Of a stretch of DNA of 64,000 nt, positions 10,857 to 63,925 are shown one piece after another. The DNA comes from an uncultured bacterium. Its GTDB lineage: Bacteria; Patescibacteriota; Minisyncoccia; Phycocordibacterales; Phycocordibacteraceae. The notes beneath the pieces are model-generated. The model ran no database searches, was not told the origin of the DNA, and saw only the letters and a list, made by a program, of their open reading frames with translations. The position numbers and the translations under genes are program-made. Location of the stretch: assembly GCA_947085985.1 (NCBI GenBank), contig CAMTYL010000003.1:234108-298107 (forward strand). The letters run 5' to 3'. Position 1 is the stretch's first letter, and every line of letters starts with the position of its first letter.

Positions 10857-11353
10857 ACGTGTAGTTGTTCGCGGACCTTTTTCAATGCGCGATTGATGCG
10901 CACCGATACCGCATTTGCGCTCTCTCCACGAAGCGCCGCAATCTCGGCAGGAGAGAATCCTTCCACAAAACGGAGCACCATAGCCTCACGCGAGGGTTCG
11001 TCCAGGGTATATATCACGCGTAGTACTTCTTCATTCATCGCATGATGCAGAATAGGCACTTCGTTAGAACCTTCTATTTCCACGCCTTCGTCAGTTATAG
11101 CATCAAGCGATGTTTCTTTTTTCTTTCTATACCAGTCAATGACAAGATTACGCGCGATAGCATACAAAAGTGCCCTATCGTTTCGCAACACGGTACCCTC
11201 TCGCAAGGCTTGCCAGAAACGGACAAAAACGTCCTGAGTGATATCTTCCGCCTTCTCTTTGTTACTTACCTTCATGAGAACAAAGCGATAGATAGCGTCA
11301 GCGTACGTCTCGTACGATAGGAGAAAATAGTCTTTAGCTTCGTCCTGGTCCAT
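10853..11353 (-). CDS. RNA polymerase sigma factor, ECF (sigma-70 regions 2 and 4)
   Basis: DITQDVFVRFWQ (region 2.x), YAIARNLVIDWYRKKK (region 2.4/3). C-terminal region 4 HTH AEIAALRGESANAVSVRINRALKKVRE. Confidence 0.8.
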   Translation of the reverse strand: MDQDEAKDYFLLSYETYADAIYRFVLMKVSNKEKAEDITQDVFVRFWQALREGTVLRNDRALLYAIARNLVIDWYRKKKETSLDAITDEGVEIEGSNEVPILHHAMNEEVLRVIYTLDEPSREAMVLRFVEGFSPAEIAALRGESANAVSVRINRALKKVREQLHV

Positions 11354-11511
11354 AGAATATGACGTATTCCAGCCAGCATTCTGTCGCTACAGAATCTGGT
11401 GATGGAACACTAAGTCCCCTCTATGGTGCCACAATACTGTGCGTAGGGCTATGGGTACTATAGAACAAGCGCCCCTGTAGGGGCGCTTGTTACAAAAAAC
11501 GGAGCGAGATG

Positions 11512-12748: not shown

Positions 12749-13657
12749 ATGTCATCATCTCGCCGAAAGCCTGGATTCACCCTTAAAAGGGCGCCCGTAG
12801 CCGCTAAAAAGCCTGCAGCGTCCTCGCGCAGGGGTGCTACTAAGACAGCACCTGAACCAAAGCCGAAAGCTCCTCGTGGTCGCGCGTCTTTTTCTACGAC
12901 GCCAAGCTTCGTAAAGCAGCGTGGCCCGTCCCCTATGCCAAAGGGAGAGCTCTACCCTATGCGTATTAATAAGTACCTGGCACTCAAGGGGCACTCTACG
13001 CGCCGCGAAGCAGACACACTGATTACTCGCAAGGCAGTCCTTATCAACGGACGTGTCGCCCAAGTGGGAGACAAGGTACTTGAAACCGATGCAGTGGAGG
13101 TGCGCCGCAACAGTCGCCCAAAGCAGTACGCGTACTTTGCCTTCAACAAGCCAGCGGGCGTAGACACCCACCGAGAAGACACCGGCGCAGAGAACATTTT
13201 TGATTCGCTTCCTGCTGAACTGAAGCAGTTGAAGCTCTTTCCTATTGGCCGCTTGGACAAGGCGTCACACGGTCTCATTATTTTGACGAACGATGGACGC
13301 ATTACCGACCGCCTCTTGAATCCCGACTACGCGCACGAGAAGGTCTACGAAGTGCGTACCAAGCAACCGATACGTGCAACGTTTAAGGATCACATGGAGA
13401 AGGGGGTGCTTATTGAGGGCTATATGACCCGACCTGCTAAAGTAAACCTACTTGGCGAGAAGGCGTTCCGCATCACTCTTACTGAAGGCAAGAGTCACCA
13501 GATTCGCCGCATGGTGGTGGCGCTTCACAACGAAGTGTCCGACCTGCGCCGTATGAGCATCATGAATATTAAAATTGGCGCGCTAAAGGGAGGAAGCTAC
13601 CGCGCAATTGAAGGCGACGAACTTGCTGCATTTCTTTCCGCCCTGGGCTTAGCCTAA
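12749..13657 (+). CDS. RluB/RsuA-family rRNA pseudouridine synthase with basic N-terminal extension
   Basis: S4 domain MRINKYLALKGHSTRREADTLITRKAVLINGRV. Catalytic motif PIGRLDKASHGLIILTNDG (Asp of PseudoU_synth_2). Confidence 0.8.
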   Translation: MSSSRRKPGFTLKRAPVAAKKPAASSRRGATKTAPEPKPKAPRGRASFSTTPSFVKQRGPSPMPKGELYPMRINKYLALKGHSTRREADTLITRKAVLINGRVAQVGDKVLETDAVEVRRNSRPKQYAYFAFNKPAGVDTHREDTGAENIFDSLPAELKQLKLFPIGRLDKASHGLIILTNDGRITDRLLNPDYAHEKVYEVRTKQPIRATFKDHMEKGVLIEGYMTRPAKVNLLGEKAFRITLTEGKSHQIRRMVVALHNEVSDLRRMSIMNIKIGALKGGSYRAIEGDELAAFLSALGLA

Positions 13658-13677
13658 TACAAGGTTCAACCTTGTAT
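13657..13677. repeat. 21-bp perfect palindrome ATACAAGGTTCAACCTTGTAT (copy 1 of 3 in window)
   Basis: Self-complementary except for the central base. Overlaps the stop codon of the pseudouridine synthase gene. Confidence 0.85.
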
Positions 13678-13727
13678 GTATTCACGTTGTATTTTAAGAG
13701 TTGCACGGCTTCATTTATACAGAGCTT

Positions 13728-13746
13728 TACAAGGTTGAACCTTGTA
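13728..13746. repeat. 19-bp palindrome TACAAGGTTGAACCTTGTA (copy 2, reverse-complement form of copy 1)
   Basis: Identical arms to copy 1, 51 bp away, between convergent genes. Confidence 0.85.
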
Positions 13747-13783
13747 TTGGGAGGCTTGGGATAACGTAGAATGGGCCGGCACC

Positions 13784-14488
13784 CTAGGGTGCCGGCCCAT
13801 CTTCATTTTCCCGCGCCTGCTTCCCAACTCGCGCGAGGGCTTCGCGACGAACGTGCTTGGGAAGGTACGTAAGCGAGAGCTTTATGTACATCTTTGAAAG
13901 GTACACGACCACCGAGCCCAGAGTGAACTGAATCTCACCTGCAATCTCTTTGTTCGTTCTTCCTTCCCCTGCCAGCGCAAGCAGTCTGGATTCATTGACC
14001 GATAGCCTGACTAACAAGTCCAGATGATTGCTCGGGTTGAAGTCGGCTAAGTCGTCTCCCTCCTCTGCCGCCGACGCACCCTTTTTCTTTGACTGGTAGG
14101 GACTTCTGGCGCCCCTGGGACTTTCAACCCTTACCTGCCTTTGGAGTACCGCAAGCGAGGCAAGATGTGGCAGCGATTGACCTTGCTCCATGCGAGTAAG
14201 TCGCGCCGCGTCTACGGGCGAATTGTCCGAGTGCTCGGCGCACGTACCCTGGTCAAAATCGGTCACCAGGTTCTTTTTGTCGGAGGTGAGTGCGCACACT
14301 TTACACACTCGTCGTGGCGACCGACAGCCGATTGCGCAGCACCCTTGAGCGTTGCGTAATGGGATGCGGGTCTGCCTGTCGCAGACAGCAGCACTTACTC
14401 CTTGGGGGTTCCAAGCACAGGGCTTGTGTAGAATGACGGTCGGTTTTGAGAGCGAGGTCTCTAGACCTGGCTCAGGATTTCTTGCCAT
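13784..14488 (-). CDS. LuxR/GerE-family HTH transcriptional regulator with Cys-rich N-terminal domain (start uncertain; longest ORF to 14554)
   Basis: C-terminal LSVNESRLLALAGEGRTNKEIAGEIQFTLGSVVVYLSKMYIKL (LuxR HTH). N-terminal cluster CAWNP...CDRQ...CCAIGC...CKVC...CAEH suggests metal binding. Confidence 0.55.
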   Translation of the reverse strand: MARNPEPGLETSLSKPTVILHKPCAWNPQGVSAAVCDRQTRIPLRNAQGCCAIGCRSPRRVCKVCALTSDKKNLVTDFDQGTCAEHSDNSPVDAARLTRMEQGQSLPHLASLAVLQRQVRVESPRGARSPYQSKKKGASAAEEGDDLADFNPSNHLDLLVRLSVNESRLLALAGEGRTNKEIAGEIQFTLGSVVVYLSKMYIKLSLTYLPKHVRREALARVGKQARENEDGPAP

Positions 14489-14584
14489 GAAGGACCTCTC
14501 TGGTTTCTGTTGTATCCGCTGTGAGTATACGCAGGAACCCTGGACTGTCCACAAATATGCCTGTCCCCCGCCATTCTTTGACAG

Positions 14585-23811: not shown

Positions 23812-24618
23812 CTAGTAAACCGATACGGAATTCACAATTCGCCTTGATGCAGCCCTATGTGCAATTCTTTCTTTAGAAGTAGGAACGGTGGCATACAATA
23901 GCGCAGCTAAGTCCTCTGAAGTCCTAGCGACTACTGCATCCACTGCAGGCATACCGCATAGCGTCTCTAGCAGTGCGCACTTCTCTTCTTCCGAATTTCC
24001 TACTGCGGCACCAAGGATTACGCACCCTGCCACGGACCCCTGAAGGCTGTCAGCGTCCTGTTGTCGAACGACAACGTACTCGGTAAGTCCAAGCGCGCTA
24101 ATCACCGCACGCGAGCGCACACAAGCTGTCTCGTCTCTGTCTATGCAGATGATGCGGGTGCCATATAGGTGCGCAGTAAGAATAGCGGAGAGCGGAAGCG
24201 GGCCAGAGCCTACAAAGTACATGGGCTCAGTCACTGAGGTATGTTCCTGATAGAAATCAAACTCCTCATGCACCAACGCAACGTAGTTTTTATAGTACGG
24301 GAACTCGCGCAAACAGGTCCACGCATCCTCTGCGTCGACAATCCTCTGCGACCAATACTCTTCCATACGAAACTCTCCTTCTGCTGCGACACTGCGCACG
24401 CGTGCCACATCTGCTTCAGAGAACACCGAGAGGTGACCGTTTCCACGATGAGCAAGGATAAGACCAACTAACTCCGAAAAGAGTGCGTCAACCTCGGGCG
24501 AGGGAGCAAGTGATGGAAGAGCTTGCAACGCGTCAACAACAGAAAGAACCTGCGCTTTTATCTGCGCAGGTGAAACGGGAGTACTAGTAGCAGTTGTCAT
24601 GAGTAGTATGAGTGCCAC
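23812..24618 (-). CDS. nicotianamine synthase-like protein (NAS/CntL family SAM-dependent aminobutyryl transferase)
   Basis: Collinear NAS hallmarks: LAPSPEVDALFSELV, FPYYKNYVALVHEEFDFY, MYFVGSGPLPLSAILTA, C-terminal RIVNSV. Confidence 0.65.
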   Translation of the reverse strand: MALILLMTTATSTPVSPAQIKAQVLSVVDALQALPSLAPSPEVDALFSELVGLILAHRGNGHLSVFSEADVARVRSVAAEGEFRMEEYWSQRIVDAEDAWTCLREFPYYKNYVALVHEEFDFYQEHTSVTEPMYFVGSGPLPLSAILTAHLYGTRIICIDRDETACVRSRAVISALGLTEYVVVRQQDADSLQGSVAGCVILGAAVGNSEEEKCALLETLCGMPAVDAVVARTSEDLAALLYATVPTSKERIAHRAASRRIVNSVSVY

Positions 24619-24666: not shown

Positions 24667-26280
24667 CTAGATGGATTCGCGCGTCGTCTGCCAGACCTGG
24701 ACGTCACCACCGAGCTGTTGTGCGTGGTTAAGCGCACGCAGCAGGAGGTGACGGTCCTTGTTGAGCGTCGAGAAAGAAAGCGCACGGCAGAGTTCGAGTT
24801 GTTGCCAGTAGGCCCGCTCAGGGTCGCTGTTGAGCGATCCCAGCGAGAGCACGCCTTCGGCCGCCATGTCGGCGAGCCTGAGCGACTCGGCTTCTTCTCG
24901 AAACTGACCGAGCTCTGCAGGAAACGCATGCAGCCACCAGGTGATGGAGACGGCAAGCTCACGCTTGTTCGTCGCCACCTCAGAAGCGGCAATGTGCTCT
25001 TCTTGTTCCCGCAGGACCGTTGCGGCTGCGAGCCAGTACTGCATGCAGCGATACAAGGCCCTAGGGAACCACTCGTCGCGCACCGACCCTCGCCGTGCGA
25101 CTTCTTTCAGGATCTGCAGCGGTTCCGGATGTGTAATGAGCCGAAGCGCACCATCAGCCGACACAATCTGCGGCGACGCAGGAATCTCTTCCATGAGTCG
25201 CTGAACTTCCCGAATGGTCTCCTCGCGGGTTCCGGACTCCCTACGCATCAGCTGATAGCTTTCCGCGAGTTCGCCGGGCCCGTCGTACGAGACGATGAGC
25301 TGCGCGAGGCTTGGCAGGTCGAGCGCAAGCGATACGGGCCGCGTGGCGTAGAACGTCACGAAGCCGCGTTCGTCTGGCAGTGTCTGCGTCCAGGTCTCAT
25401 GGACCCGGTTGAACAGTCGACCGTCGCAGGCGCCCTTCACACGAGGAACGAATTCCTGCGTGCCATGGAACACCTGTTGCACGCCGGCGAATGTAGCATC
25501 CGCGGCAAGCAGGTATGAGTAGAGCGCCATGCCGTGTTCATCGTGATGATGATCGTGGTGGCCTTCGTGATTGTGTGGATGCGCGTGATGGTCGTGATGA
25601 CCATGACTACATGCACTGTGGTGGCACGCGGACTTCATGACGACGCCCTCGCCAAGCAACGCGCGAGGAACCGCATCACCTTCGGGAAGAAGGAAGATGC
25701 GCTTACCCGAGGCGTGTTGCTCGATGTAGTCGATGACGCCGTCGAGACGTTCGTCAGCGACGCTCATGACGTCAGGCGGATACTTGGTGAGCGCGATGCC
25801 CACCGTAGCCGCCTTTATCTGGCTTTCCATGATGGCGCCATAGCGCACGCGATTCTGCTCCAGATGGAGCACATCCACGACGCAGACCACCTGGAATGGG
25901 TATCCCGCGGACGAGAGAAAGTTTTTCGTTTCGTCGCCCGACACAATGCCGAACCCCTCCACGAAGATCCATTCCATCCCGTCTGCCGCAAGCGCATCAA
26001 GCGTTCGCCGCAGATCAGCTTCGTCCGAGCAGGTGAAACAGCCGTTCACCATGGGCATGACGGAAGCGTAGGCCGAAGCCACACTTCCGTCCACATTCCC
26101 AATGCCACCCTCGTCGTTGACGATATAGGCGCATCGCTCGCGACTCACTTCTCCAGACTCGGTAAGCGAGCGAAGTGTGGCCACCGTCAGACTGGTCTTA
26201 CCAGCTCCAAACGGCCCCACAGCCGCAAAGATATGCGGCACTGCCGTAGCTTTCATTATCTTCCCCTCCTTGGGGTTCAC
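24667..26280 (-). CDS. COG0523-family (CobW/ZigA/YeiR-like) metallochaperone GTPase with His-rich linker and extended C-terminal domain
   Basis: Walker A GPFGAGKTSL. CxxC-type metal motif NGCFTC (compare CobW GCICC). His-rich stretch CHHSACSHGHHDHHAHPHNHEGHHDHHHDEHG. About 280 aa of C-terminal sequence of unknown function. Confidence 0.6.
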   Translation of the reverse strand: MNPKEGKIMKATAVPHIFAAVGPFGAGKTSLTVATLRSLTESGEVSRERCAYIVNDEGGIGNVDGSVASAYASVMPMVNGCFTCSDEADLRRTLDALAADGMEWIFVEGFGIVSGDETKNFLSSAGYPFQVVCVVDVLHLEQNRVRYGAIMESQIKAATVGIALTKYPPDVMSVADERLDGVIDYIEQHASGKRIFLLPEGDAVPRALLGEGVVMKSACHHSACSHGHHDHHAHPHNHEGHHDHHHDEHGMALYSYLLAADATFAGVQQVFHGTQEFVPRVKGACDGRLFNRVHETWTQTLPDERGFVTFYATRPVSLALDLPSLAQLIVSYDGPGELAESYQLMRRESGTREETIREVQRLMEEIPASPQIVSADGALRLITHPEPLQILKEVARRGSVRDEWFPRALYRCMQYWLAAATVLREQEEHIAASEVATNKRELAVSITWWLHAFPAELGQFREEAESLRLADMAAEGVLSLGSLNSDPERAYWQQLELCRALSFSTLNKDRHLLLRALNHAQQLGGDVQVWQTTRESI

Positions 26281-26675: not shown

Positions 26676-26768
26676 GAAGCGTGCTGTGCTGGCAGTCTGG
26701 GAGATGTTGGAACCTTTTGACCAAATCTTCCGAAGCCCTTAGTATGCGACCAGACGGAGGAGCGCATA

Positions 26769-27119
26769 ATGCTTGATTCAGAAATCGCCAACTCCATTGT
26801 GGAGTCGAGCCTAAAATTGCTCGGTGCTCCATACCGAGAAGACTACAGATGTATTGAGTTCGCCCGAGAGGTGTACAGCACCGTCGGACTTTCTCTGCCT
26901 CCGCCTTCGATGAATCTAACGGTGGCGGATATGAAAGACCCGCCCATAGGTTATGTCCTGTACCTGAGGCACAAGGCTCATCGCGGAACGAGTCTATTCA
27001 CTCACGTAGTGATTACGCTTTCAGAACGTAGATGTATACACGCGTCCTATTACTTCGGGATGGCAGTTGTCATAACTGATCTTGATGTACTGCTTGAACT
27101 GTACGACGTAGCCACCTAA
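26769..27119 (+). CDS. small NlpC/P60 (C40 peptidase)-like protein (tentative)
   Basis: LGAPYREDYRCIEFAREVY (Cys in DCSG-like position), later THVVI / CIHAS His residues. Overlaps the convergent 27021-27776 ORF by 99 bp, so one of the two may be shorter. Confidence 0.35.
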   Translation: MLDSEIANSIVESSLKLLGAPYREDYRCIEFAREVYSTVGLSLPPPSMNLTVADMKDPPIGYVLYLRHKAHRGTSLFTHVVITLSERRCIHASYYFGMAVVITDLDVLLELYDVAT

Positions 27120-27776
27120 ACGACCCACTTCAGCGAAGTGGGTCGAGCTGTTTTTGCTGGCCGTCTCGCAAGGTAGATCAATACCTGCGAGTACGAGAAT
27201 TGAAAGTGCTGAGAACAACAGCACACACAGATTCCCTATTATGAAGAAAAAGAAAGCGCTCTTTCGCAGTAACGAACCTACGATTCCATATCGAGCAGCT
27301 CTTCCTTTAGAAAGCTCTGCTAGCCCAGCAAACTCCGTTGCGGATATCCTGAGCTCCTCGATTTTTTCTGGCTCGTCTTCGGGCGCGATTCCGTTAAAAG
27401 TTAATCTCCCTTCCTCCGCCATTGCGACCATCTCTTTCCTCTCTTCAGCATGAAGACGCACCCATTCTGCGTGTAACATCCGTGACGTATGCTCAGCAGT
27501 AAAGACTCTGATGTAAATACCGACAAGGAGAGTTACGAAAAGGAGTCCCCAGCCCAGGAACACAATCTCATATAGTGGAACCGAAAAGGCTTCCTCTGTA
27601 AGAACATCTACTTCAACCGAGATTAAGTAACCTATGAAGGTTATGCTCAGCGAGATAACGCCACCGCTGTAGAGCGCCAGCTTCTCGTAGAAGCTTGATA
27701 GTGCTTTTGTGTGCTCATCGTTGGCATCACTATATGCAATGGCGGCCTCCTGAATAGAGTTCGGTTGTATAGGCAT
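27021..27776 (-). CDS. hypothetical membrane protein (251 aa)
   Basis: Several hydrophobic helices (FYEKLALYSGGVISLSITFIGYLISV; FLGWGLLFVTLLVGIYIRVF; FFFFIIGNLCVLLFSALSILVLAGI). Confidence 0.45.
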   Translation of the reverse strand: MPIQPNSIQEAAIAYSDANDEHTKALSSFYEKLALYSGGVISLSITFIGYLISVEVDVLTEEAFSVPLYEIVFLGWGLLFVTLLVGIYIRVFTAEHTSRMLHAEWVRLHAEERKEMVAMAEEGRLTFNGIAPEDEPEKIEELRISATEFAGLAELSKGRAARYGIVGSLLRKSAFFFFIIGNLCVLLFSALSILVLAGIDLPCETASKNSSTHFAEVGRLGGYVVQFKQYIKISYDNCHPEVIGRVYTSTF

Positions 27777-27881
27777 GACTTACACATCATAGCGGAACTA
27801 CAATGTTTTGCCTTACTTATTTACTAGCCCATGTACGCTAGAACGAGAATAACCTACAACACGTGTCGTGCTAGCTGTCAA

Positions 27882-27912
27882 TGGCTGGGGGAAAGGGATT
27901 CGAACCCCTATA
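27882..27912 (-). pseudogene. orphan tRNA 3' fragment (T-arm + acceptor 3' strand + CCA) with no matching 5' half
   Basis: Reverse strand reads ...AGGGGTTCGAATCCCTT-TCCCCCA-G-CCA. The required 5' acceptor complement (TGGGGGA) is absent within 100 nt. Confidence 0.4.
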
Positions 27913-27966
27913 GACGGCACCAAAAACCGTGTCCTACAGGCGAGTGAGCGAGTGAAATGTGCTGTG

Positions 27967-28037
27967 CTGGGAGACTAGGGATCGAACCTAGATTCACGGC
28001 TTCAAAGGCCGCTGTCCTACCATTAGACGATCTCCCA
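27967..28037 (-). tRNA. tRNA-Gln (anticodon TTG)
   Basis: Reverse strand TGGGAGA-TC-GTCT-AATGGTA-GGAC-A-GCGGC-CTTTGAA-GCCGT-GAAT-CTAGG-TTCGATC-CCTAG-TCTCCCA-G. All stems pair. Confidence 0.8.
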
Positions 28038-28039
28038 GC

Positions 28040-28108
28040 ACAGAACACTTCCGAGCGAACGCTGTCTGTATGGGCGTAGCCCATACCATTAGACGATCTG
28101 CAGCTCTA
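28040..28108 (-). pseudogene. degenerate tRNA-Gln-like 5' fragment (shares AGATCGTCTAATGGTA and GACAGCG with tRNA-Gln, interrupted by 17 nt)
   Basis: Reverse strand GCTGCAGATCGTCTAATGGTA-TGGGCTACGCCCATACA-GACAGCG-TTCGCTCGG. No T-arm. Confidence 0.35.
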
Positions 28109-28129
28109 CCTACAAATATTTCTAACCTC

Positions 28130-31349: not shown

Positions 31350-32627
31350 CTACTCGCCTTGGCCTGATTTACCCAATGAAGTCTTCCCGACATAGGGGAC
31401 GAGTACTTCAGGCACACGGATAGTGCCGTCTTCTTGCTGATAATTTTCTACAAGCATTGAGAGAATGCGCGGCATTGCTACTGCGGTGTTGTTGAGTGAG
31501 TGGGCAAACTGCAACTTGCCCTCGCTATCGCGATAGCGCGTGGTAAGACGGCGTGTCTGGAAGTCGTGGAAGTACGAGGAGGAGTGTGTTTCGCGGTACG
31601 TGTTTTGCGACGGCATCCACGCTTCAATGTCGTACTTCTTTACCTGTCCAAGCCCTAGGTCACCACCGCAATTAACCACTACGTGGTATGGCAGATTTAG
31701 GAGCTGCAAGAACTCTTCCGCGTTCTGTGTGAGCTCTTCATGCAAACGCACTGACTCAGTGTGTGACGCTTCACACAACACTACCTGCTCCCATTTGAAA
31801 AACTCGTGTACACGAATGAGGCCCTTCGTGTCCTTGCTGTGACTACCTGCCTCTCTGCGGAAACAGGGAGAGTAGGAAACAAACTTCACCGGAAGCTGAT
31901 TCATATCAAGCGTCTCGTTCATGTAGTAGCCCATGGTCGCCACCTCAGCGGTGCCTGATAGATACTCCCCGTCCTGTGTCTTGTACAAATCTTCCTCGCT
32001 CTGTGGCAGGTAGCCCGTTCCCATAAACGTCTCACGACGAACCAGAGACGGCGCGATGAGCGGCTCAAATCCTTTCTTCACAAAATGCATGAGCGCAAGT
32101 TGGGAGACGGCGTTCGCAAGGAGTACTCCATCACCCTTCAAAAAGTATCCGCGGAACCCTGCCACCTTCGTACCACGCTCAAAATCAGCCATGCCGAGAT
32201 TGGTCATCAGCTCCACATGATCCTTTGGCGCAAATGAAAATGTAGGAATGTCGCCCCAGGTCCTCACTTCTACGTTGTCAGCATCACTATCCCCCTCAGG
32301 CACCGTCATGTCAGGAATGTTTGGGACGGAGAGCATAAGCTTCTGCCACTCTTCCATTACCTTCACCAGCTTTTCTTCCGCTTCTGCCATGCCGTCCTTT
32401 AGCGTCTTTAGCGATTCAAGCAGCTTCTCCTTTTCTTCTCCTTGAATATTTACAATATTAAAACTTGCACGGTTCTGCTCTGCGCGCTTTTCATCAAGCT
32501 CCGTGCGCAGTGCTTTGCGCTCGTCGTCCACCGCAATAAGGCGATCTATGTCCACCTCAATGTGTTTCTTGCGGGCACCCTCCTGTACCAGCTCTTTATT
32601 CTCGCGGATGAAATGAATGTCTAGCAT
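31350..32627 (-). CDS. serS: serine--tRNA ligase
   Basis: N-terminal coiled-coil arm MLDIHFIRENKELV...LDEKRAE. Class II motifs FRREAGS, GYRGYF. 425 aa. Confidence 0.9.
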   Translation of the reverse strand: MLDIHFIRENKELVQEGARKKHIEVDIDRLIAVDDERKALRTELDEKRAEQNRASFNIVNIQGEEKEKLLESLKTLKDGMAEAEEKLVKVMEEWQKLMLSVPNIPDMTVPEGDSDADNVEVRTWGDIPTFSFAPKDHVELMTNLGMADFERGTKVAGFRGYFLKGDGVLLANAVSQLALMHFVKKGFEPLIAPSLVRRETFMGTGYLPQSEEDLYKTQDGEYLSGTAEVATMGYYMNETLDMNQLPVKFVSYSPCFRREAGSHSKDTKGLIRVHEFFKWEQVVLCEASHTESVRLHEELTQNAEEFLQLLNLPYHVVVNCGGDLGLGQVKKYDIEAWMPSQNTYRETHSSSYFHDFQTRRLTTRYRDSEGKLQFAHSLNNTAVAMPRILSMLVENYQQEDGTIRVPEVLVPYVGKTSLGKSGQGE

Positions 32628-39358: not shown

Positions 39359-39463
39359 GTATGCATTCTATCACTACGTACCCGCATCACACAGAAGGAG
39401 CGGTGGTGAAAAAAGAACCCGATAGTGGTATGGTTACCCCTAGTGAAGAAGACATTCACTGAT

Positions 39464-39550
39464 GCCGCGGTGATGAAATTGGTAGACATAGGGGTCTCAA
39501 AATCCCCTGCTGGCAACGGCGTGCGGGTTCGAGTCCCGCCTGCGGCACCC
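39464..39550 (+). tRNA. tRNA-Leu (anticodon CAA), long variable arm
   Basis: GCCGCGG-TG-ATGAAATTGGTAGACAT-AGGGGT-CTCAAAA-TCCCC-TGCTGGCAACGGCGT-GCGGG-TTCGAGT-CCCGC-CTGCGGC-A-CC. Confidence 0.8.
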
Positions 39551-40129
39551 ATAGACACTGCTCTCGCACCAGTACTCGCCTACATAGTCGGTGTTGCCTT
39601 AGGAGACGGGAATCTATCCTGCCCAAACGGCAGAGCCACGCGACTTCGCATAACTTGCGATACTAGATATCCAGAAGTAGCTGATGAGATTATCAAGAGT
39701 CTTAACCAGCTTTTCCCACATAACAAGGTTTCCAGGGTTAAGCCTCGAGGAGGTTGTTTTGATATCAGCGTTTACTCAAACAAACTGAATGACTGGATCC
39801 CATGGCGTGTTGGGCATGGCTCCAAAATTGTTCAGTGCGTAACTGTACCCGAGTGGATACTTTTGAATGAAGAGTATTCAAAGCATTGTCTTCGTGGACT
39901 AATTCAGACAGACGGATGCGTGTATGTAGATAGGGGCTACAGAATGGTGAATTTTACGAACAATTCAAAAGAGCTGGCGCAAAGTGTTCATGAGCTGCTA
40001 ACGCAATTGAAGTACCGCCCTCGCCTCATCTGTGTCAGTAACGGGGGCTTTAGAAAGTACACGACACGAGTGGCCAGGAAAGTTGAGGTTGAGCGGCTTA
40101 TACAAGATACAGGACTCTACAAATCGTAA
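39551..40129 (+). CDS. LAGLIDADG homing endonuclease (two motifs). Reading frame is open through the upstream tRNA-Leu(CAA) back to GTG 39425; no canonical start between tRNA end and motif 1
   Basis: Motif 1 LAYIVGVALGDGNL. Motif 2 LRGLIQTDGCVYV. In-frame codons from 39551 (ATA GAC ACT...) lack ATG/GTG/TTG until after motif 1. Confidence 0.6.
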   Translation: MDTALAPVLAYIVGVALGDGNLSCPNGRATRLRITCDTRYPEVADEIIKSLNQLFPHNKVSRVKPRGGCFDISVYSNKLNDWIPWRVGHGSKIVQCVTVPEWILLNEEYSKHCLRGLIQTDGCVYVDRGYRMVNFTNNSKELAQSVHELLTQLKYRPRLICVSNGGFRKYTTRVARKVEVERLIQDTGLYKS

Positions 40130-44833: not shown

Positions 44834-44907
44834 GGGTCCATAGTTTAGTGGTAGAACATCGGTCTCCAAAACCGATAGTGTAGGTTCGATTCCTACTGGG
44901 CCCGCCA
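44834..44907 (+). tRNA. tRNA-Trp (anticodon CCA)
   Basis: GGGTCCA-TA-GTTTAGTGGTAGAACA-TCGGT-CTCCAAA-ACCGA-TAGTG-TAGGT-TCGATTC-CTAC-TGGGCCC-G-CCA. Confidence 0.85.
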
Positions 44908-44912
44908 AGAAG

Positions 44913-44934
44913 AACCCCGAAAGGGGTTTTCTTC
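44913..44934 (+). terminator. rho-independent terminator after tRNA-Trp
   Basis: AACCCC-gaaa-GGGGTT followed by TTCTTC. Confidence 0.55.
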
Positions 44935-44968
44935 GTGGCGGGCCCAAGCAAACGTGGGACGTTTGCGC

Positions 44969-45304
44969 GTAGGAATCGAAGATGTTGCGAGCATATTTCG
45001 TAAGCGAAGCGGACTGAAATATCCGCAACGTGTACAGAAACTGTAAGTTTCGAAAGCGAAGCGTTTCCTACTGGACTTAGGAATCGAAGCGCGGAGCCGT
45101 GACGACGGCGAGCGGGGGTCGCGGAATTTTGCAGCAGGAAAATATCTGTGACCGATGCGTGAGCAAATTCTCTTACGAGCACAGCGAGTTTAGAGATATA
45201 AGGAGCTGCGCGACTATATATCTATTATTTGTCTATTTAGAGAATGCGAACTTCCTACTGGTCTTAGATCCCGGGCGAAAGTGGTACTCCACGGTTCCTA
45301 CTGA
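44969..45304. repeat. cluster of tRNA-Trp-derived fragments: inverted T-arm copies GTAGGAATCGAAG (44969-44981, 45076-45087) and direct 3'-end copies TTCCTACTGG/A (45063-45072, 45252-45261, 45295-45304)
   Basis: Exact 10-13-nt matches to the tRNA-Trp T-loop/acceptor TTCGATTCCTACTGG, in both orientations, within a 400-bp noncoding trailer. Confidence 0.7.
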
Positions 45305-45309
45305 GCCCC

Positions 45310-46286: not shown

Positions 46287-46362
46287 ACTGCCAACAAGTT
46301 CGTCTCCGGACAGACTTTGCTGGCAGTACAAAGAAACCGCCCTCGGGCGGTTTCTTTGCTTT
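46287..46362 (+). ncRNA. candidate small RNA 1 (~75 nt): 5' imperfect hairpin (CTGCCAACAAG...CTTTGCTGGCAG) + terminator hairpin AAACCGCC-ctcg-GGCGGTTT + U-tract
   Basis: Promoter-TSS-terminator spacing. No plus-strand CDS. The terminator hairpin is identical to that of candidate 2. Confidence 0.4.
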
Positions 46363-46438: not shown

Positions 46439-46512
46439 GTGCTCATGAGTTTTCGCTCTCGGGCAAATTCTTGTGAGCACACTGGAGAAACCGCCCTCGG
46501 GCGGTTTTTCCA
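46439..46512 (+). ncRNA. candidate small RNA 2 (~75 nt): 5' hairpin (GTGCTCATGAG...CTTGTGAGCAC) + terminator hairpin GAAACCGCCCTCGGGCGGTTT + UUUUU
   Basis: Same architecture as candidate 1, 150 bp downstream. 24-nt identical terminator segment. Confidence 0.4.
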
Positions 46513-53418: not shown

Positions 53419-53443
53419 CTTCGCGGTAGTATTGCCGTATCAG

Positions 53444-53515
53444 GCTCGGTGGTGAAGTAGAAACACGGCGGATTGCAAACCCGCTACTGCGCGGGTGCGA
53501 TTCCCGCCCGGGCCT
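53444..53515 (+). tRNA. tRNA-Cys (anticodon GCA), atypical (A-C at 31-39, G54 in T-loop)
   Basis: GGCTCGG-TG-GTG-AAGTAGAAA-CAC-G-GCGGA-TTGCAAA-CCCGC-TACTG-CGCGG?-TGCGATT-CCCGC-CCGGGCC-U73. The U73 discriminator fits Cys identity. Confidence 0.55.
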
Positions 53516-53656
53516 CTGAACGAAGTGAAGAGAACGGGAGAACCCTGCCTGCGCAGGGTTCGTCGGGAATCGCAAGCCGCAGCGATACTTCTTGTACTCA
53601 AGAGGTCGCGAGGCCGGGCAGGAGCACTTGCTCGTCCGCGAGCTTAGTGACTGGTG

Positions 53657-53676
53657 CCGTTTCCCGCCCGGGCCTC
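53657..53676 (+). repeat. direct repeat of the tRNA-Cys 3' end (TTCCCGCCCGGGCCTC, 16/16; extended GGTGC-G-TTCCCGCCCGGGCCTC) 160 bp downstream of the original
   Basis: Exact 16-nt identity between 53501-53516 and 53661-53676. Confidence 0.8.
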
Positions 53677-53693
53677 CAAGGTATACTTATTTA

Positions 53694-54197
53694 GTGTCGG
53701 CACGCGTACCAGAGCGTTGGGCTGAGGCAAATGTGCGAGACGCTGTGTCTCGTTCAACCAGTGTTCGTGATCTCATTCAAAATCTTGGACTGGTGCCTGC
53801 TGGTGGTAATTATGACCAGTGCTATCTGCACATTGAACGTTACAAGATTGATATCTCGCACTTTACTGGAAAGGCGTGGTGTAAAGGACGCACTATTCCG
53901 AAGTCTCCCGTATATTCGCTTGAGGAGCTGCTCGTTAAAGACGCAAAAACTTCTCGTGTAAATCTCAAGAGGCGCTTGTTTTCTTCAGGACTGAAAAGAC
54001 GTGCGTGCGAGGAATGCGGCTGGGCGCGAGTAAGTGAGGACGGGAGAATTCCAATTGAGCTTGATCATATAAACGGGGACAGTAGGGACAACAGGCTGGA
54101 GAATTTGAGAATTCTGTGCCCTAATTGCCACAGTTTGAAACCTACACACAGAGGAAGTAATATTCTCTACAAGCGCCGGGGTGGTGAAATTGGTTAG
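53694..54197 (+). CDS. HNH endonuclease (homing-endonuclease-like). Start uncertain (longest ORF from 53592 runs through the tRNA-Cys repeat); stop codon lies inside tRNA-Leu(TAA)
   Basis: CEECGW...IELDHINGDSRDNRLENLRILCPNCHS is a canonical HNH (His-Asn-His, Cys4) motif. TAG stop is the TTAG of the tRNA D-loop. Confidence 0.7.
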   Translation: MSARVPERWAEANVRDAVSRSTSVRDLIQNLGLVPAGGNYDQCYLHIERYKIDISHFTGKAWCKGRTIPKSPVYSLEELLVKDAKTSRVNLKRRLFSSGLKRRACEECGWARVSEDGRIPIELDHINGDSRDNRLENLRILCPNCHSLKPTHRGSNILYKRRGGEIG

Positions 54198-54259
54198 ACA
54201 CGAAGGTCTTAAACACCTTCGACGGAAACGTCATGCGGGTTCGAGTCCCGCCCCCGGCA
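54175..54259 (+). tRNA. tRNA-Leu (anticodon TAA), long variable arm
   Basis: GCCGGGG-TG-GTGAAATTGGTTAGACAC-GAAGGT-CTTAAAC-ACCTTC-GACGGAAACGTCAT-GCGGG-TTCGAGT-CCCGC-CCCCGGC-A. Confidence 0.8.
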
Positions 54260-54442
54260 CATTTGAGTGAAGCGAAAGGAGTGCTGGGGAGCACATCTGG
54301 GAGATGTGCGTGCGGGACCCGAAAACCTTGCGAGACTGGACGCTAGTCCAGCCGCAAGGTGTACGCTGAGATTCTTAAGGAGCACAGCGACTGTAAGAAT
54401 CCAAGTGCAGTTTAGCAAAAGCTGCCCGTCCCCGTAGGGAAA

Positions 54443-54460
54443 GAGTCCCGCCCCCGGCAC
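54443..54460 (+). repeat. direct repeat of the tRNA-Leu(TAA) 3' end (GAGTCCCGCCCCCGGCAC, 18/18) exactly 200 bp downstream
   Basis: Identical to 54243-54260. Confidence 0.8.
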
Positions 54461-54482
54461 CGAGATATCGTATAATCACCAG

Positions 54483-55676: not shown

Positions 55677-55749
55677 GCGCCCTTAGCTCAGTTGGTAGAG
55701 CAACTCCCTCTTAAGGAGATGGTCCCTGGTTCGAATCCAGGAGGGCGCA
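55677..55749 (+). tRNA. tRNA-Lys (anticodon CTT)
   Basis: GCGCCCT-TA-GCTCAGTTGGTAGAGC-A-ACTCC-CTCTTAA-GGAGA-TGGTC-CCTGG-TTCGAAT-CCAGG-AGGGCGC-A. Confidence 0.8.
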
Positions 55750-55796
55750 CAAATAAAAACACCCGGACCTCCGGGTGTTTTTATTTGTGCGCCCTC
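55741..55796. terminator. 56-bp perfect palindrome made of the tRNA-Lys 3' end (GAGGGCGCACAAAT), a terminator hairpin (AAAAACACCCGG-acct-CCGGGTGTTTTT) and an inverted copy of the tRNA 3' end (ATTTGTGCGCCCTC)
   Basis: Read directly. Outer arms 14 bp, inner arms 12 bp, 4-nt loop. Confidence 0.75.
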
Positions 55797-56047
55797 AGGA
55801 AGACATCTGCATGTCTTCCGTCTGGATTCGAACGCCGGAGCATGTTTCTCTCAGCAGAGAGAAACAGCGAGGCGGTGCCCGACCTAAATTTCTTGAGCGC
55901 AGCGATTAGAAATTGAAAGTACTCCTGTGGTGCAGAGCAAGCCGAGTGACGACGAGGCGCAGACTCGCGGGCGAAAAGCGTAATCGCGGTCCAGGATGAT
56001 TTTATCTGTTTGTGCAGCTTATGATTTCTGGTACCATAGCAAAACAA

Positions 56048-56129
56048 GCCCGGGTGGTGAAATTGGTATACACGCCTGCCTTAGGAGCAGGTCCCTTCGG
56101 GGGTGGAGGTTCAAGTCCTCTCCCGGGCA
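56048..56129 (+). tRNA. tRNA-Leu (anticodon TAG), long variable arm
   Basis: GCCCGGG-TG-GTGAAATTGGTATACAC-GCCTGC-CTTAGGA-GCAGG-TCCCTTCGGGGGT-GGAGG-TTCAAGT-CCTCT-CCCGGGC-A. Confidence 0.8.
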
Positions 56130-56417
56130 CAACAACGAACAAGTCTGATGCGGAAGCATTGGACTTCTATCGTTTTGTAGACCCGGTAGAGGACTTGAAA
56201 GACGGAGGTGCGCGCCGAGAATCTCTTGAGCGAAGCGATTAGAGATTCCAAGTACTCCTGGGGTGAAGCCACGCGAAGCGTGTAGCCGAGTCGGGGTCGC
56301 GCTACTTAGCGAGTCTGCGAGCTTAGTGATGCGTGGCCAAAAGTGTAATCACGTGTCCTCCGGGCACAACAACGAACAAGTCTGATGCGGAAGCATTGGA
56401 CTTCTATCGTTTTGTAG
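56123..56417 (+). repeat. 58-nt direct repeat (CCGGGCAC + 50-nt trailer) at 56123-56180 and 56360-56417, bracketing a ~180-bp trailer unit homologous to the unit after tRNA-Lys (55890-55995)
   Basis: Exact 58/58 identity. Bracketed unit shares CTTGAGCG(A/C)AGCGATTAGA...AGTACTCCTG...AGCCGAGT...AAAAG(C/T)GTAATC(G/A)CG(G/T)GTCC with the Lys trailer. Confidence 0.8.
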
Positions 56418-56447
56418 CACTGGGAAAAGACTCCAGAGTAGTAAGGG

Positions 56448-59964: not shown

Positions 59965-60333
59965 TTAGCGAGGACCGCCTGTAGTAGGGGCTACTGGGTA
60001 GCTAGGCACGTTGTTCTGCAGGCCTACTGACCCGGTAAGAATACGTACGAGTCCCCATACTGATACCATCACGAAGAAGCCGATAAGGCCCCAGAGCATG
60101 AGTGCACGACCCTTCTCCTTTGCCTCCTCGTTAGTTCCGCCGAGGATGAACACCTGGAACACGCCCCAGATAAATACGATAAACGCGAGTGCAAATACTA
60201 CCGGTACCGCAACGTTGTTGATGAGACCGATAATAAACTCACCTGCACCCTGCACACTTGTGACGGTTCCCGTCTGCGCGAATGCGATGAGTGGGAAAAC
60301 GAGCACGGCACCAATAAGACCAAGTTTCTTCAT
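59965..60333 (-). CDS. T4SS-pilin-like protein, paralog 2 (with signal peptide)
   Basis: Signal peptide, then VPVVFALAFIVFIWGVFQVFILGGTNEEAKEKGRALMLWGLIGFFVMVSVWGL. Confidence 0.5.
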   Translation of the reverse strand: MKKLGLIGAVLVFPLIAFAQTGTVTSVQGAGEFIIGLINNVAVPVVFALAFIVFIWGVFQVFILGGTNEEAKEKGRALMLWGLIGFFVMVSVWGLVRILTGSVGLQNNVPSYPVAPTTGGPR

Positions 60334-60416
60334 AGAGGATAATTAGCTAGATACCCTTATAGGATAGTCTAGTGGTGGGTAACGTCAATAGAATAAGCAG
60401 CCTGGTGTGGAAAACA

Positions 60417-60845
60417 CTAGCGATTACACTTCGACGGGTCTTTGTCAAAACACGGCAAGTTTGGGCGCGTGTTGTTGTCGGTAGGAATAAGTGACTTAGC
60501 AAGATTCACCAGTCCCCAAATGGAGAGCATCACCACAAAGCCAATGAGTGCCCATAGTACAAACTTAGCTCCCTCCTTTCTCTTTTCCTCGTTATTAGCT
60601 CCAAGAATAAAAGCCTGGAACACGCCCCAGAGAAACACTATGAATGCGAGCGCAAACACGAATGGCACTACCACCGTATTAAGCACTCCAATAAATGAGT
60701 CACTCAAGTTCTGAATCGCACTCGTATTTAGCGCCCCGGGCTGTGGGGCCGGGGCTGGATTCTGTTGCGCTACGGCAACTGAGGCAGAGAGCAACAGCAG
60801 CGAGAGTAAGGCAACGTGTCCCAGTCGGAAAAAGAAAGTCTTCAT
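60417..60845 (-). CDS. T4SS-pilin-like protein, paralog 3 (with signal peptide)
   Basis: VVPFVFALAFIVFLWGVFQAFILGANNEEKRKEGAKFVLWALIGFVVMLSIWGL. Confidence 0.5.
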   Translation of the reverse strand: MKTFFFRLGHVALLSLLLLSASVAVAQQNPAPAPQPGALNTSAIQNLSDSFIGVLNTVVVPFVFALAFIVFLWGVFQAFILGANNEEKRKEGAKFVLWALIGFVVMLSIWGLVNLAKSLIPTDNNTRPNLPCFDKDPSKCNR

Positions 60846-60894
60846 ATATCTATAAGCGTACCAGACTACCCTACTCTACTTCGCGGTTATCCCA

Positions 60895-61134
60895 CTAGCT
60901 AGGGAGTATACCCAGAAACAGTCTGACGATGCTCCACACAGAGAACAGTACGACAAATCCAATAATTCCCCAGAGCATAAAGACGCGCCCCTTCTGCCGC
61001 TGCTCTTCGCCGCCCATAAAAAAGAACCGCACCATCCCAATGAGGAAGAAAATAAAGGCCAGCGCGTACAGAAGCGGTATAACCGCTCCATCTACCAGGC
61101 GCGCAATACTGTTTACGAGGTCTGCGAACGTCAT
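60895..61134 (-). CDS. T4SS-pilin-like protein, paralog 4
   Basis: IPLLYALAFIFFLIGMVRFFFMGGEEQRQKGRVFMLWGIIGFVVLFSVWSI. Confidence 0.5.
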   Translation of the reverse strand: MTFADLVNSIARLVDGAVIPLLYALAFIFFLIGMVRFFFMGGEEQRQKGRVFMLWGIIGFVVLFSVWSIVRLFLGILPS

Positions 61135-63847: not shown

Positions 63848-63896
63848 ATATCTAAATCGTATCACGCTGCACCCCTCTACTGTCTCTGTTTTCTGT

Positions 63897-63915
63897 TTAC
63901 AAGGTTCAACCTTGT
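63897..63915. promoter_or_regulatory. 19-bp palindrome TACAAGGTTCAACCTTGTA (copy 3), about 10 bp downstream of a minus-strand -10 element: candidate operator
   Basis: Identical to copies at 13657-13677 and 13728-13746. Sits between the promoter and the start codon of the 63491-63847 gene. Confidence 0.6.
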
Positions 63916-63925
63916 ACCACACCGG

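Follow-up and report, generated by a model that had tools for sequence, protein, structure and literature searches.

Among the described systems that come closest to the elements treated here, integron cassettes are stacked in tandem at one attachment point and end in an imperfect-palindrome hairpin with a variable centre (attC), in which the single-stranded fold outweighs the sequence; a gene within the cassette is optional. Integrative mobile elements exploiting Xer (IMEX) of the CTXphi type regenerate their target site and leave the order target copy, cargo, inverted copy, about 100 nt and direct copy. Islands that target tRNA and tmRNA genes by means of a tyrosine integrase duplicate the 3' end of the gene from the T-loop on, keep the gene intact and accrete in tandem. 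The ERIC, BOX, REP/BIME, Correia and MITE-like (miniature inverted-repeat transposable element) repeats are multi-copy, non-coding, shorter than 300 nt and modular with optional inserts; they are also structured on the transcribed strand and stand after genes, and for several of them the mobilising enzyme is unknown. Group IIC introns insert just past intrinsic terminator hairpins, recognising the hairpin and short flanking pairings, and TIGR arrays and the bridge RNAs of IS110 combine a constant scaffold with two short variable segments that match both DNA strands and with GA-type internal loops. Each of these systems recalls the foldback cassettes described here from a 64,000-nt stretch of the genome of an uncultured member of the Patescibacteria (GenBank assembly GCA_947085985.1, contig CAMTYL010000003.1, positions 234,108 to 298,107 of the forward strand; hereafter the window), but the cassettes share some of the defining properties of every system compared and lack others. 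It is close to certain that they constitute a real, uncatalogued, structured repeat family at the 3' ends of genes. The reading favoured here, to which a probability of about 45% is given, is that of an uncatalogued patescibacterial family of mobile, RNA-structured, non-coding foldback cassettes which recombine within a duplicated 3' end of the host gene.

The window holds seven tRNA genes, five of which (Trp, Cys, Leu-TAA, Lys and Leu-TAG) are followed by one and the same layout: the tRNA with its 3' segment (a), a terminator (Y), the acceptor part of an inverted copy (a'Acc), usually a conserved hairpin (hpA), the T part of the inverted copy (a'T), a core (U) and a direct copy of a. The inverted copy a', which was overlooked in the preliminary description of this sequence, precedes every unit and is its most regular feature; it comprises the T-loop and the 3' strand of the T-stem, mostly also the 3' strand of the acceptor stem, and lies 30 to 70 nt past the gene. 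The direct copy of the same 3' segment is found a further 60 to 170 nt downstream of a' and, in the case of tRNAs, starts in the T-loop, often at C56, and extends to the end of the tRNA or further. Hairpin hpA is 21 to 25 nt long and cuts a' exactly at the junction of T-stem and acceptor stem (Lys, Trp and Leu-TAA); its position and its GCAA..TTGC-GT format recur at other loci behind many different tRNAs. As the acceptor part of a' abuts the terminator, a long palindrome results. The order a-Y-a'-U-a, present at the five window tRNAs and at most related loci, equals that of the CTXphi-type IMEX, and the arms a' and a enclose U in the manner of the (a)-cargo-a'-loop-a layout of integron cassettes.

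Genes for tRNA were called with ARAGORN and the Rfam tRNA model, domains of open reading frames (ORFs) were assigned with Pfam, and for the search for arms each tRNA was aligned to its own downstream sequence in both orientations. Two covariance models were built, of which R1 matches at T-module cores and R2 at S-family cores (see below). The tRNA-Lys(CTT) gene (55677-55750, called with ARAGORN; all features of this locus are on the forward strand) runs into a 56-bp perfect palindrome (55741-55796, repeat search) made up of the tRNA 3' end, a bidirectional terminator and an inverted acceptor copy, as had been noted before. The Lys cassette (55797-55996), recognised by the alignment to downstream sequence and by a weak R2 match (E=0.42), consists of hpA (55797-55821), a'T (55822-55833) and a core that is a B-variant of the S-family, with the hairpins hpB (55841-55867), GAGCGCAGCGA-loop (55886-55914) and GAGTGACGACGA-loop (55941-55958) and a small hairpin (55978-55987); of the direct arm only a 7-nt remnant is left (55990-55996). 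Behind tRNA-Leu(TAG) (56048-56130, ARAGORN), a 58-nt segment composed of the last 8 nt of the tRNA and a trailer with a terminator-like site (56123-56180) recurs exactly, including a second terminator, at 56360-56417, in agreement with the earlier account. The Leu-TAG cassette lies between the two copies (56181-56359; R2 match, E=7e-6) and comprises a 19-nt inverted copy of T-loop, T-stem 3' strand and acceptor 3' strand (56181-56199), an S-family core (56198-56338), a GAGCGAAGCGA-loop hairpin (56219-56248), a small hairpin (56343-56352) and a direct arm starting at 56355. The two units are indeed homologous, with 80% identity over 65 nt (55871-55935 versus 56204-56268). The downstream copy of the tRNA's own 3' end that had been reported for all these units was recovered for Trp, Cys, Leu-TAA and Leu-TAG, but merely as the 7-nt remnant for Lys; the generalisation that each tRNA carries a unit had to be given up, as tRNA-Gln and tRNA-Leu(CAA) of the window are without one and the tRNA-Lys trailers of the relatives L003 and L004 are empty (loci outside the window are cited by numbers of this form).

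The strength and polarity of the arrangement were assessed in 165 tRNAs from 85 Patescibacteria sequences, namely the window, four syntenic relatives and 80 genome loci. The window's alanine racemase (alr), the gene of which sits between the window tRNAs, has named relatives in Parcubacteria and Paceibacterota, and nearly all of its 80 best genomic relatives are Patescibacteria assemblies. Inverted copies of the last 30 nt of the tRNA were found within 450 nt downstream of 34 of 164 tRNAs and upstream of 3 of 165 at a score of at least 20, and numbered 21 downstream and 2 upstream at a score of at least 24; direct copies with a score of at least 24 numbered 30 downstream and 9 upstream. The same layout was present behind tRNA-Tyr, Val, Arg, Glu, Ile and Ser in genomes with an alanine racemase only 40-45% identical to that of the window. 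Among the listed metagenome matches of a core 17-mer (see below), an exact inverted repeat of at least 10 nt around Y and hpA was found in 49 of 72 cases (11 of 72 in the direct-repeat control). Regarding the 34 units that stand first in an array behind a tRNA, both arms were equally kept (mean local scores 10.6 and 10.4, as compared with 6.4 and 5.6 in the controls), and in eight of them the exact repeat begins at C56 of the T-loop, fused to the last C of a core-terminal GUGACC, and reaches the end of the tRNA. In units behind genes other than tRNA, a' inverts whatever sequence directly precedes the terminator of that gene. The repeats range from 6 to 68 nt in length, their termini being locus-specific copies of the host 3' end, and paired substitutions on both arms were seen between the window and L001. 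In this respect the cassettes differ from MITE, REP, ERIC and BOX repeats, which have constant terminal inverted repeats and a short target duplication of fixed length, whereas foldback termini take the adjoining gene as their template, in both orientations; the association of the cassettes with tRNA 3' ends is also far stricter. They differ likewise from attC sites in that the conserved R'' (RYYYAAC) and R' (GTTRRRY) boxes are absent and the arms are locus-specific copies of the host 3' end.

The core U consists of a T-module, an S/B-module or both, to which optional hairpins may be added. The T-module has the order a'-GA-P2-GAGC-P3-P2'-UGUAC-P4, with UGUAA or GUA in the P4 loop. Compensatory changes occur in 19 to 21 of its 23 predicted pairs (19 in the 11 seed sequences), 90.3% of the cells are paired in 19 model-aligned matches, and the covariation score was 0.626, as against 0.177 for shuffled and at most 0.134 for slid alignments. 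The S-family starts with a GNC-G(G/C)A-GC / GC-GA-GNC internal loop, the flanking helices of which covary, and continues with a variable hairpin and a long hairpin GGGGUCGMGAACACUUAG...CUUAGUGAUUCGUGACC. In an alignment of 140 distinct S-family sequences 95.1% of the cells were paired, double changes were found in all 26 pairs, and the covariation score was 0.471 (0.154 when shuffled, the observed value being reached by none of 500 shuffles, and at most 0.06 when slid). The conserved secondary structure that the preliminary description had suggested looking for is thus present in both modules, and the similarity lies in a covarying multi-hairpin structure and not in low-complexity GC-rich stretches. 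One G·U pair is kept in 119 of the 140 S-family sequences, and G·U exceeds A·C by 196 to 36 overall and by 82 to 33 without the conserved column, from which it follows that the selected fold is that of the tRNA-sense strand. The folded molecule is therefore indicated to be RNA or, less likely, one strand of DNA. Invariant loop nucleotides are the GUA of the P4 loop, UGUAC and the GGA/GA internal loop.

The B units (Lys in the window; Cys and Leu-TAG in relatives) are variants of the S-family, and in full-length cores of about 200 nt the start of B is joined with a T-module and an S hairpin (L200, L113 and L165; folding z = -6.1). The GAGCGAAGCG motif, formerly taken to define the family, turned out to be an optional hairpin-loop module inside U and not the family's core; it forms the apex of the S hairpin (L158), lies within P3, follows certain tRNAs directly or makes up an insert of 56-62 nt, which is present in the Leu-TAA and Lys units of the window and absent from the Leu-TAA orthologues in L001, L002 and L004 and from the L001 Cys core. 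Apart from tRNA, nothing in the window reached the gathering threshold of any Rfam 15 family. In permissive scans the trailers gave no consistent match at E<=10, and eight loci with canonical T and S units gave none at E<=1. No tmRNA (ARAGORN) and no match to Y_RNA or YrlA (Rfam) was found in the trailers; by eye, the base of the S hairpin (GGUCG/UGACC with G·U) may resemble the Ro-binding helix. Sub-threshold matches to the Rfam family sX4 (RF02223) were recorded at L083 (877-1045 and 6125-6288, reverse strand; E=0.008 and 0.36) over tRNA-Ser genes and their trailers, and probably reflect the tRNA-containing seed of that family and not homology to the cassettes. As no description was found in the searchable literature either, with the motif sequences among the queries, the absence of a known element type claimed earlier stands.

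The size and nature of the core separate the cassettes further from known systems. What would be the loop of an attC site is here a conserved, covarying multi-hairpin core of 60-200 nt, and group IIC introns differ in that the foldback core has no six-domain ribozyme and no Rfam group II match, and no intron-encoded protein or reverse transcriptase was found in the window ORFs. Group I or II introns and split or permuted tRNAs were rejected on the grounds that the upstream tRNA is complete, the core too small and the intron models unmatched. A primer-binding site for mature tRNA was likewise dismissed, the inverted copy continuing into the genomic trailer and not into CCA. The covariation also bears on the proposal, made in the preliminary description, that the repeats are products of endonuclease-stimulated gap repair, and on chance local duplication beside tRNAs. 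Genes for an HNH (53592-54197) and a LAGLIDADG (39425-40129) endonuclease do adjoin window tRNAs, as homing-endonuclease cuts with subsequent gap repair would have it, but most cassette loci are without an endonuclease gene, the polarity is strict, and repair leaves unexplained the covarying core, the inverted arm and the cassettes with no such gene nearby; chance duplication is ruled out by the covariation and the long-range sequence conservation. Covariation and cassette distribution together bring both explanations near to refutation, and they are considered highly improbable.

The family is abundant and follows gene 3' ends. In 678 kb (window and genome loci) the models gave 31 matches (16 T and 15 S/B), each located 42-494 nt 3' of a tRNA on the same strand, for which the chance expectation is about 7% per match. 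With filters off, S-family matches in the window were confined to the Trp, Cys, Leu-TAG and, weakly, Lys trailers, and 560 kb of selected contigs contained 169 S-family matches. A 17-mer of the S core (CTTAGTGATTCGTGACC), used as a probe in metagenome and viral contigs, occurred in at least 120 metagenome contigs. Among the matches listed (130 matches at 120 metagenome loci), 79 have a same-strand tRNA upstream, 47 of these at 105-192 nt past the tRNA 3' end, and the host tRNAs represent 33 different anticodons; regarding those without a nearby tRNA, 22 are cut by contig ends, and among the others are two chance matches in coding sequence and units behind tmRNA, ftsZ, other protein genes and unidentified RNAs. 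A second terminator usually follows the units. The 17-mer gave no match in viral contigs, and hence no sign of a phage origin; the hairpin-loop pattern CGAGTRACGACGAGRC had 43 matches in viral contigs, all of them chance hits inside coding sequence. No clear signal was obtained for GC skew in relation to cassette orientation and replication. The element is thus tied to gene 3' ends and terminators, with tRNAs by far the commonest hosts, and tRNA mimicry is not the general rule. The earlier view of a repeat family of tRNA trailers was right as to the family and too narrow as to the host, the same core being found also behind tmRNA, ftsZ and others, each time with arms taken from the gene in question. 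For the same reason, arms being arbitrary behind ftsZ and others, a tmRNA-like or aminoacylatable tRNA mimic, or a minihelix for RNase P and RNase Z, was rejected as a general principle.

The range of hosts distinguishes the cassettes from integrons, as the attachment point is the 3' end of a tRNA, tmRNA or other gene, and from the CTXphi-type IMEX, as the targets are these 3' ends and not XerCD/dif, no XerCD-binding motifs are present, the cargo is merely a terminator and not a phage genome, and there are many targets per genome. Scars of tyrosine-integrase islands, inserted in the T-loop of tRNA or tmRNA genes with duplication of the 3' end and later deleted, would agree with the direct repeat from the T-loop to the tRNA end, with tmRNA among the targets and with the window tRNA-Gln, the 3' end of which is repeated at the border of a 1.28-kb islet. 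Such scars would not, however, have a covarying core in common at hundreds of loci and behind tRNAs of dozens of identities, they leave the inverted arm and hpA unexplained, and cassettes also occur behind protein-gene terminators; neither integrase genes nor remnants of them were found among the 20 ORFs of the window and the 613 ORFs near the 120 metagenome loci. This origin is accordingly regarded as quite improbable. Islands in general are of kilobase scale, whereas the cassettes measure 100-250 nt, have no ORF, add an inverted copy of the target and place the same core at dozens of tRNAs and at protein-gene terminators. No intI, attI or Pc was found either, the search for an integrase having covered the same two sets of ORFs and whole genomes not exhaustively.

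Orthologous tRNAs carry different cores. At tRNA-Cys the window has an S core, L001 has S and B, L004 has B together with the optional hairpin, and L048 has B. At tRNA-Lys the unit is complete in the window and truncated in L001, L003 and L004 are without one, and L056 has a T unit. At tRNA-Leu(TAG) the core is S in the window, B in L001 and T in L056. Cores are also exchanged between sites: the Lys core of the window and the Cys core of L004 are 88.5% identical over 157 nt, with 46% identity in the terminators, 40% in hpA and different arms; for comparison, the orthologous Leu-TAA units of the window and L004 are 92% identical. Tandem stacking at one attachment point, as in integrons, was seen at L158, L200 and the window tRNA-Trp. 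In L158 five identical 136-nt units, each hpA-a'-U-a, stand in a row. Behind tRNA-His of L200 two cassettes are followed by a terminator, a gene for a HAD hydrolase of 215 aa, a segment of 68 nt in which tRNA end, Y and a' are repeated exactly, and two further cassettes. In L002 the repeat behind tRNA-Leu(TAA) stops exactly at the encoded CCA and the conserved alr promoter flank comes next, as expected of an insertion. The sole candidate for a strain-level empty site, L128, was discarded as a chimeric Logan contig joined inside tRNA-Lys; it is identical to the window up to the tRNA-Lys T-loop and continues with a foreign tRNA-Lys 3' end, a plain terminator and tRNA-Leu (11255-11382). Such a chimera, joined in conserved tRNA sequence, is a warning for tRNA-adjacent assemblies of these genomes.

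The miniature targeting elements and the co-transcribed trailer RNAs proposed in the preliminary description remain the two leading readings. According to the second, the units would be host-serving: a read-through transcript would contain a structured small RNA, the a':a helix marking its precise excision by RNase P and RNase Z or by RNase III, with the helix imitating the acceptor/T-stem stack and hpA replacing the body of the tRNA. Either the RNA once released or its structure in cis could act, e.g., in the handling of read-through transcripts, in 3'-end protection or in protein binding, and copies would spread only by local duplication and concerted evolution. The tRNA-sense fold, the conserved G·U pair and the invariant GUA, UGUAC and GGA/GA nucleotides speak for it, as do the Leu-TAA unit that is in place in six genomes with a compensatory change, the exact position of hpA at the acceptor/T junction of many different tRNAs and the frequent second terminator. 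The helix of arbitrary local sequence behind ftsZ, tmRNA and other genes means, on the other hand, that imitation of tRNA cannot be the general principle; the closing helix has no reason to copy the upstream gene, and the turnover of cores, the empty trailers, the identical tandem units and the protein gene within an array resemble the dynamics of insertion. A host-serving RNA is judged somewhat unlikely.

The constant scaffold, the locus-specific arms that match both strands of the adjoining target and the K-turn-like GGA/GA internal loop between covarying helices would also suit a guide RNA of an enzyme encoded in trans, with hpA and the 11-21 nt of a' in the roles of handle and guide, U in that of the scaffold and a in that of a second guide or anti-guide; such an RNA would target a nuclease or recombinase to the adjoining gene's 3' end in the way of IS110 bridge RNAs, the omega RNAs of TnpB and IscB or TIGR-Tas RNAs. 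TIGR-Tas systems do occur in Patescibacteria (PMC12045711), which counts in favour. Their units, however, are of about 36 nt, with two alternating repeats of 8-12 nt and 9-nt spacers, or are box C/D stem-loops, next to a gene for a Tas protein with a Nop domain (PMC12045711), whereas the foldback units are of 100-250 nt with a different layout, show no box C (RUGAUGA) or box D pattern, and had no Nop domain in the ORFs tested. The two arms cover the same stretch, are complementary to each other and would pair, whereas the guides of bridge RNAs and tigRNAs address adjacent, non-complementary segments. Genes for Nop/Tas, IS110, TnpB or IscB were not detected in the vicinity (the 20 window ORFs and the 613 ORFs of the 120 loci), and neither HEARO nor any other omega RNA was matched in Rfam. 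A TIGR array or bridge RNA as such was rejected on its layout, and the broader guide-RNA explanation is considered improbable.

The reading as mobile cassettes, preferred here, builds on the observed layout, tRNA-sense single-strand fold, link to gene 3' ends, abundance, arrays, turnover and exchange of cores between loci, with arms that stay local. The core would act as RNA produced by read-through of Y, with a':a as its closing helix, and the cassettes would be non-autonomous mobile units, gained and lost through recombination inside the duplicated 3' end of the host. The order a-Y-a'-U-a would be the exact product of a small circle or folded hairpin (a-Y-a'-U) recombining inside the chromosomal a, and recombination between the two copies of a could lead to excision or amplification of units. 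Conserved parts (hpA, U and partly Y) alternate with local ones (a'Acc, a'T and a), so that simple cut-and-paste cannot generate the arms. It is proposed that template switching of the fold-back (quasi-palindrome) type, at the hairpin of the terminator, rewrites these from local sequence. Such switching is a known process that perfects quasi-palindromes; it would also account for the 56-bp perfect palindrome and for the paired arm substitutions between the window and L001. In its furthest form the proposal amounts to a self-retargeting non-coding element, with an RNA core of about 60-200 nt that settles behind the terminators of highly transcribed genes and has its closing helix copied from the host 3' end in both orientations, so that any 3' end could be used without a sequence-specific enzyme encoded by the element; this extension is put forward tentatively and is open to doubt.

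Several observations weigh against mobility. The interleaving of conserved and locus-specific parts lies beyond simple cut-and-paste, and the re-templating of arms is a proposal only. Six related genomes retain the Leu-TAA unit at its position, and P2 shows a compensatory change; this fits a functional RNA retained by the host as well as it fits a mobile element. Mobility does not explain the conserved G·U pair and the conserved loop nucleotides, which hint at a function as RNA. Neither an excised circle nor presence/absence between strains was seen. No recombinase, transposase, reverse transcriptase or HUH enzyme was detected by Pfam in the 20 window ORFs, and none of these was enriched among the 613 clustered ORFs of the 120 metagenome loci, by which whole genomes were not covered exhaustively.

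The neighbours of these 120 loci are housekeeping genes and, in five loci, a gene for an HTH/LAGLIDADG-like protein (HTH, helix-turn-helix) upstream of tRNAs. This protein has about 220-240 aa, with the HTH at its N-terminus and a LAGLIDADG-like motif GLMLYIALGD (L165 608-1333, L135 3543-4220, L211 5544-6203, L158 8932-9597 and L227 6774-7394); its gene directly precedes a tRNA in four or more of the five loci, and at least three of those tRNAs bear cassettes (L165, L135 and L211). The window encodes DprA, part of the machinery for uptake of single-stranded DNA, which is counted among the signs of mobility.

The other three cassette-bearing tRNAs of the window, likewise on the forward strand, show the same parts. 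The tRNA-Trp(CCA) gene (44834-44907; ARAGORN and Rfam tRNA) is the host of a three-part array. Its acceptor 3' strand, the terminator Y and the inverted acceptor copy (a'Acc, 44936-44946) form a near-palindrome (44897-44946), followed by hpA (44947-44968) exactly at the acceptor/T-stem junction of the inverted copy. Trp cassette 1 (44969-45074; R1 match at 44969-45064, E=2.8e-19) has an inverted T-loop/T-stem arm (44969-44980), a T-module core with P2, P3 with GTAAGCGAAGCGG loop (44993-45022), UGUAC and P4 (45036-45051), and a direct arm (45064-45074). Trp cassettes 2 and 3 (45078-45309; R2 match, E=8e-7) comprise an inverted arm (45078-45088), an S-family core (45087-45153), a GAGCACAGCGA-loop hairpin (45168-45197) and direct arms at 45251-45263 and 45293-45309. 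The Cys cassette (53517-53677; R2 match, E=2.7e-5) behind tRNA-Cys(GCA) (53443-53516, ARAGORN) consists of a trailer hairpin (53540-53561), an inverted arm (53564-53574), an S-family core (53573-53658) and a direct arm (53657-53677), and has orthologous copies in L001 and L002. The Leu-TAA cassette (54260-54461; R1 match at 54312-54460, E=1.3e-13) behind tRNA-Leu(TAA) (54175-54260, ARAGORN) contains a GAGTGAAGCGA trailer (54260-54279), a'Acc (54281-54289), hpA (54290-54311), a'T (54312-54323), a T-module core and a direct arm (54443-54461); the core carries a window-specific inserted hairpin module of 62 nt (54365-54426) that is absent from the orthologues L001, L002, L004, L048 and L049.

The HNH endonuclease ORF of the window (53592-54197, forward strand), with matches to Pfam HNH and HNH_3, separates the cassette of tRNA-Cys from tRNA-Leu(TAA). 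The gene is also found in L002 and L128; L001 has a second foldback cassette there instead, and L004, without the HNH gene, has a single B-type cassette between tRNA-Cys and tRNA-Leu(TAA). The ORF at 39425-40129 (forward strand), with a LAGLIDADG_3 domain (E=2.5e-10), runs through and past tRNA-Leu(CAA) (39463-39551), which is without a foldback cassette; its first LAGLIDADG-like motif (LAYIVGVALGDG) begins about 30 nt after the tRNA, and the ORF looks like an independent homing-endonuclease gene that has settled at the 3' end of a tRNA. In the region 26681-28110 (reverse strand), the tRNA-Gln gene (27966-28037) is followed by a 3'-half fragment of another tRNA (27937-27884) and then by the 1.28-kb islet. 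The islet contains an ORF for a membrane protein of 251 aa and one of 116 aa, neither with a Pfam match, and terminates in the repeated tRNA-Gln 3' end (26681-26707). Some of the 5' part of the tRNA is also duplicated upstream, at about 28050-28110. The whole resembles an ordinary small island, and a'-U-a is absent.

Further features of the window were recorded. A 21-nt palindromic repeat (TTTACAAGGTTSAACCTTGTA) occurs at 13653-13751, in two copies 70 nt apart beside a gene for a LuxR/GerE-type regulator (13784-14554), and again at 32449-32469 and, near the end of the window, at 63896-63916; it may be an operator site. Copies of a terminator-like hairpin (AAACCGCCCTCGGGCGGTTT) flank short segments in the window (46334-46355 and 46486-46507), in L001 (2190-2360) and in L004 (2240-2330). 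In L001 and L004 the segments stand downstream of the tRNA-Trp array, after promoter-like CTTGACA...TAGATT/TATATC boxes and a conserved hairpin, and may be genes for small RNAs. A GTPase-like protein of 537 aa (24667-26280, reverse strand) with a long His-rich stretch (HHDHHAHPHNHEGHHDHHHDEH) is encoded next to a gene of the nicotianamine-synthase family (23812-24618, reverse strand); the two may form a metal-handling pair, unusual for such a reduced genome. Three paralogous 70-nt segments with 64-70% identity lie inside three adjacent small ORFs of 122-142 aa (60047-60995, reverse strand), which look like a tandem family of small membrane or pilin-like proteins.

Conservatively, the foldback cassettes are placed in the loosely defined class of structured non-coding intergenic repeat elements; their acquisition of arms would make them a new kind of element, which at present seems possible but doubtful. 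Patescibacteria account for a large share of bacterial diversity and have tiny, poorly understood genomes, in which a non-coding element that fills much of the scarce intergenic space, follows most of the window tRNAs and keeps its core to the nucleotide in lineages very distant from one another had escaped annotation. The cassettes explain tRNA-fragment 'pseudogenes' and tRNA-adjacent repeats that may cause assembly breaks or chimeric joins, and the covariance models R1 and R2 make the question of their nature testable on any complete genome or metatranscriptome. If the units serve the host, they would represent a new class of RNA connected with the expression of tRNAs or the handling of 3' ends in organisms whose RNA processing is unusual. 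If they are mobile, the arms that change with the neighbouring gene, unlike those of known miniature elements, integron cassettes and tRNA-targeting islands, would imply an undiscovered route of recombination or templating, and if the copying is templated, with either DNA or the terminated transcript primed by snap-back at the hairpin of the terminator, it would be a way of acquiring targets undescribed for any mobile element.

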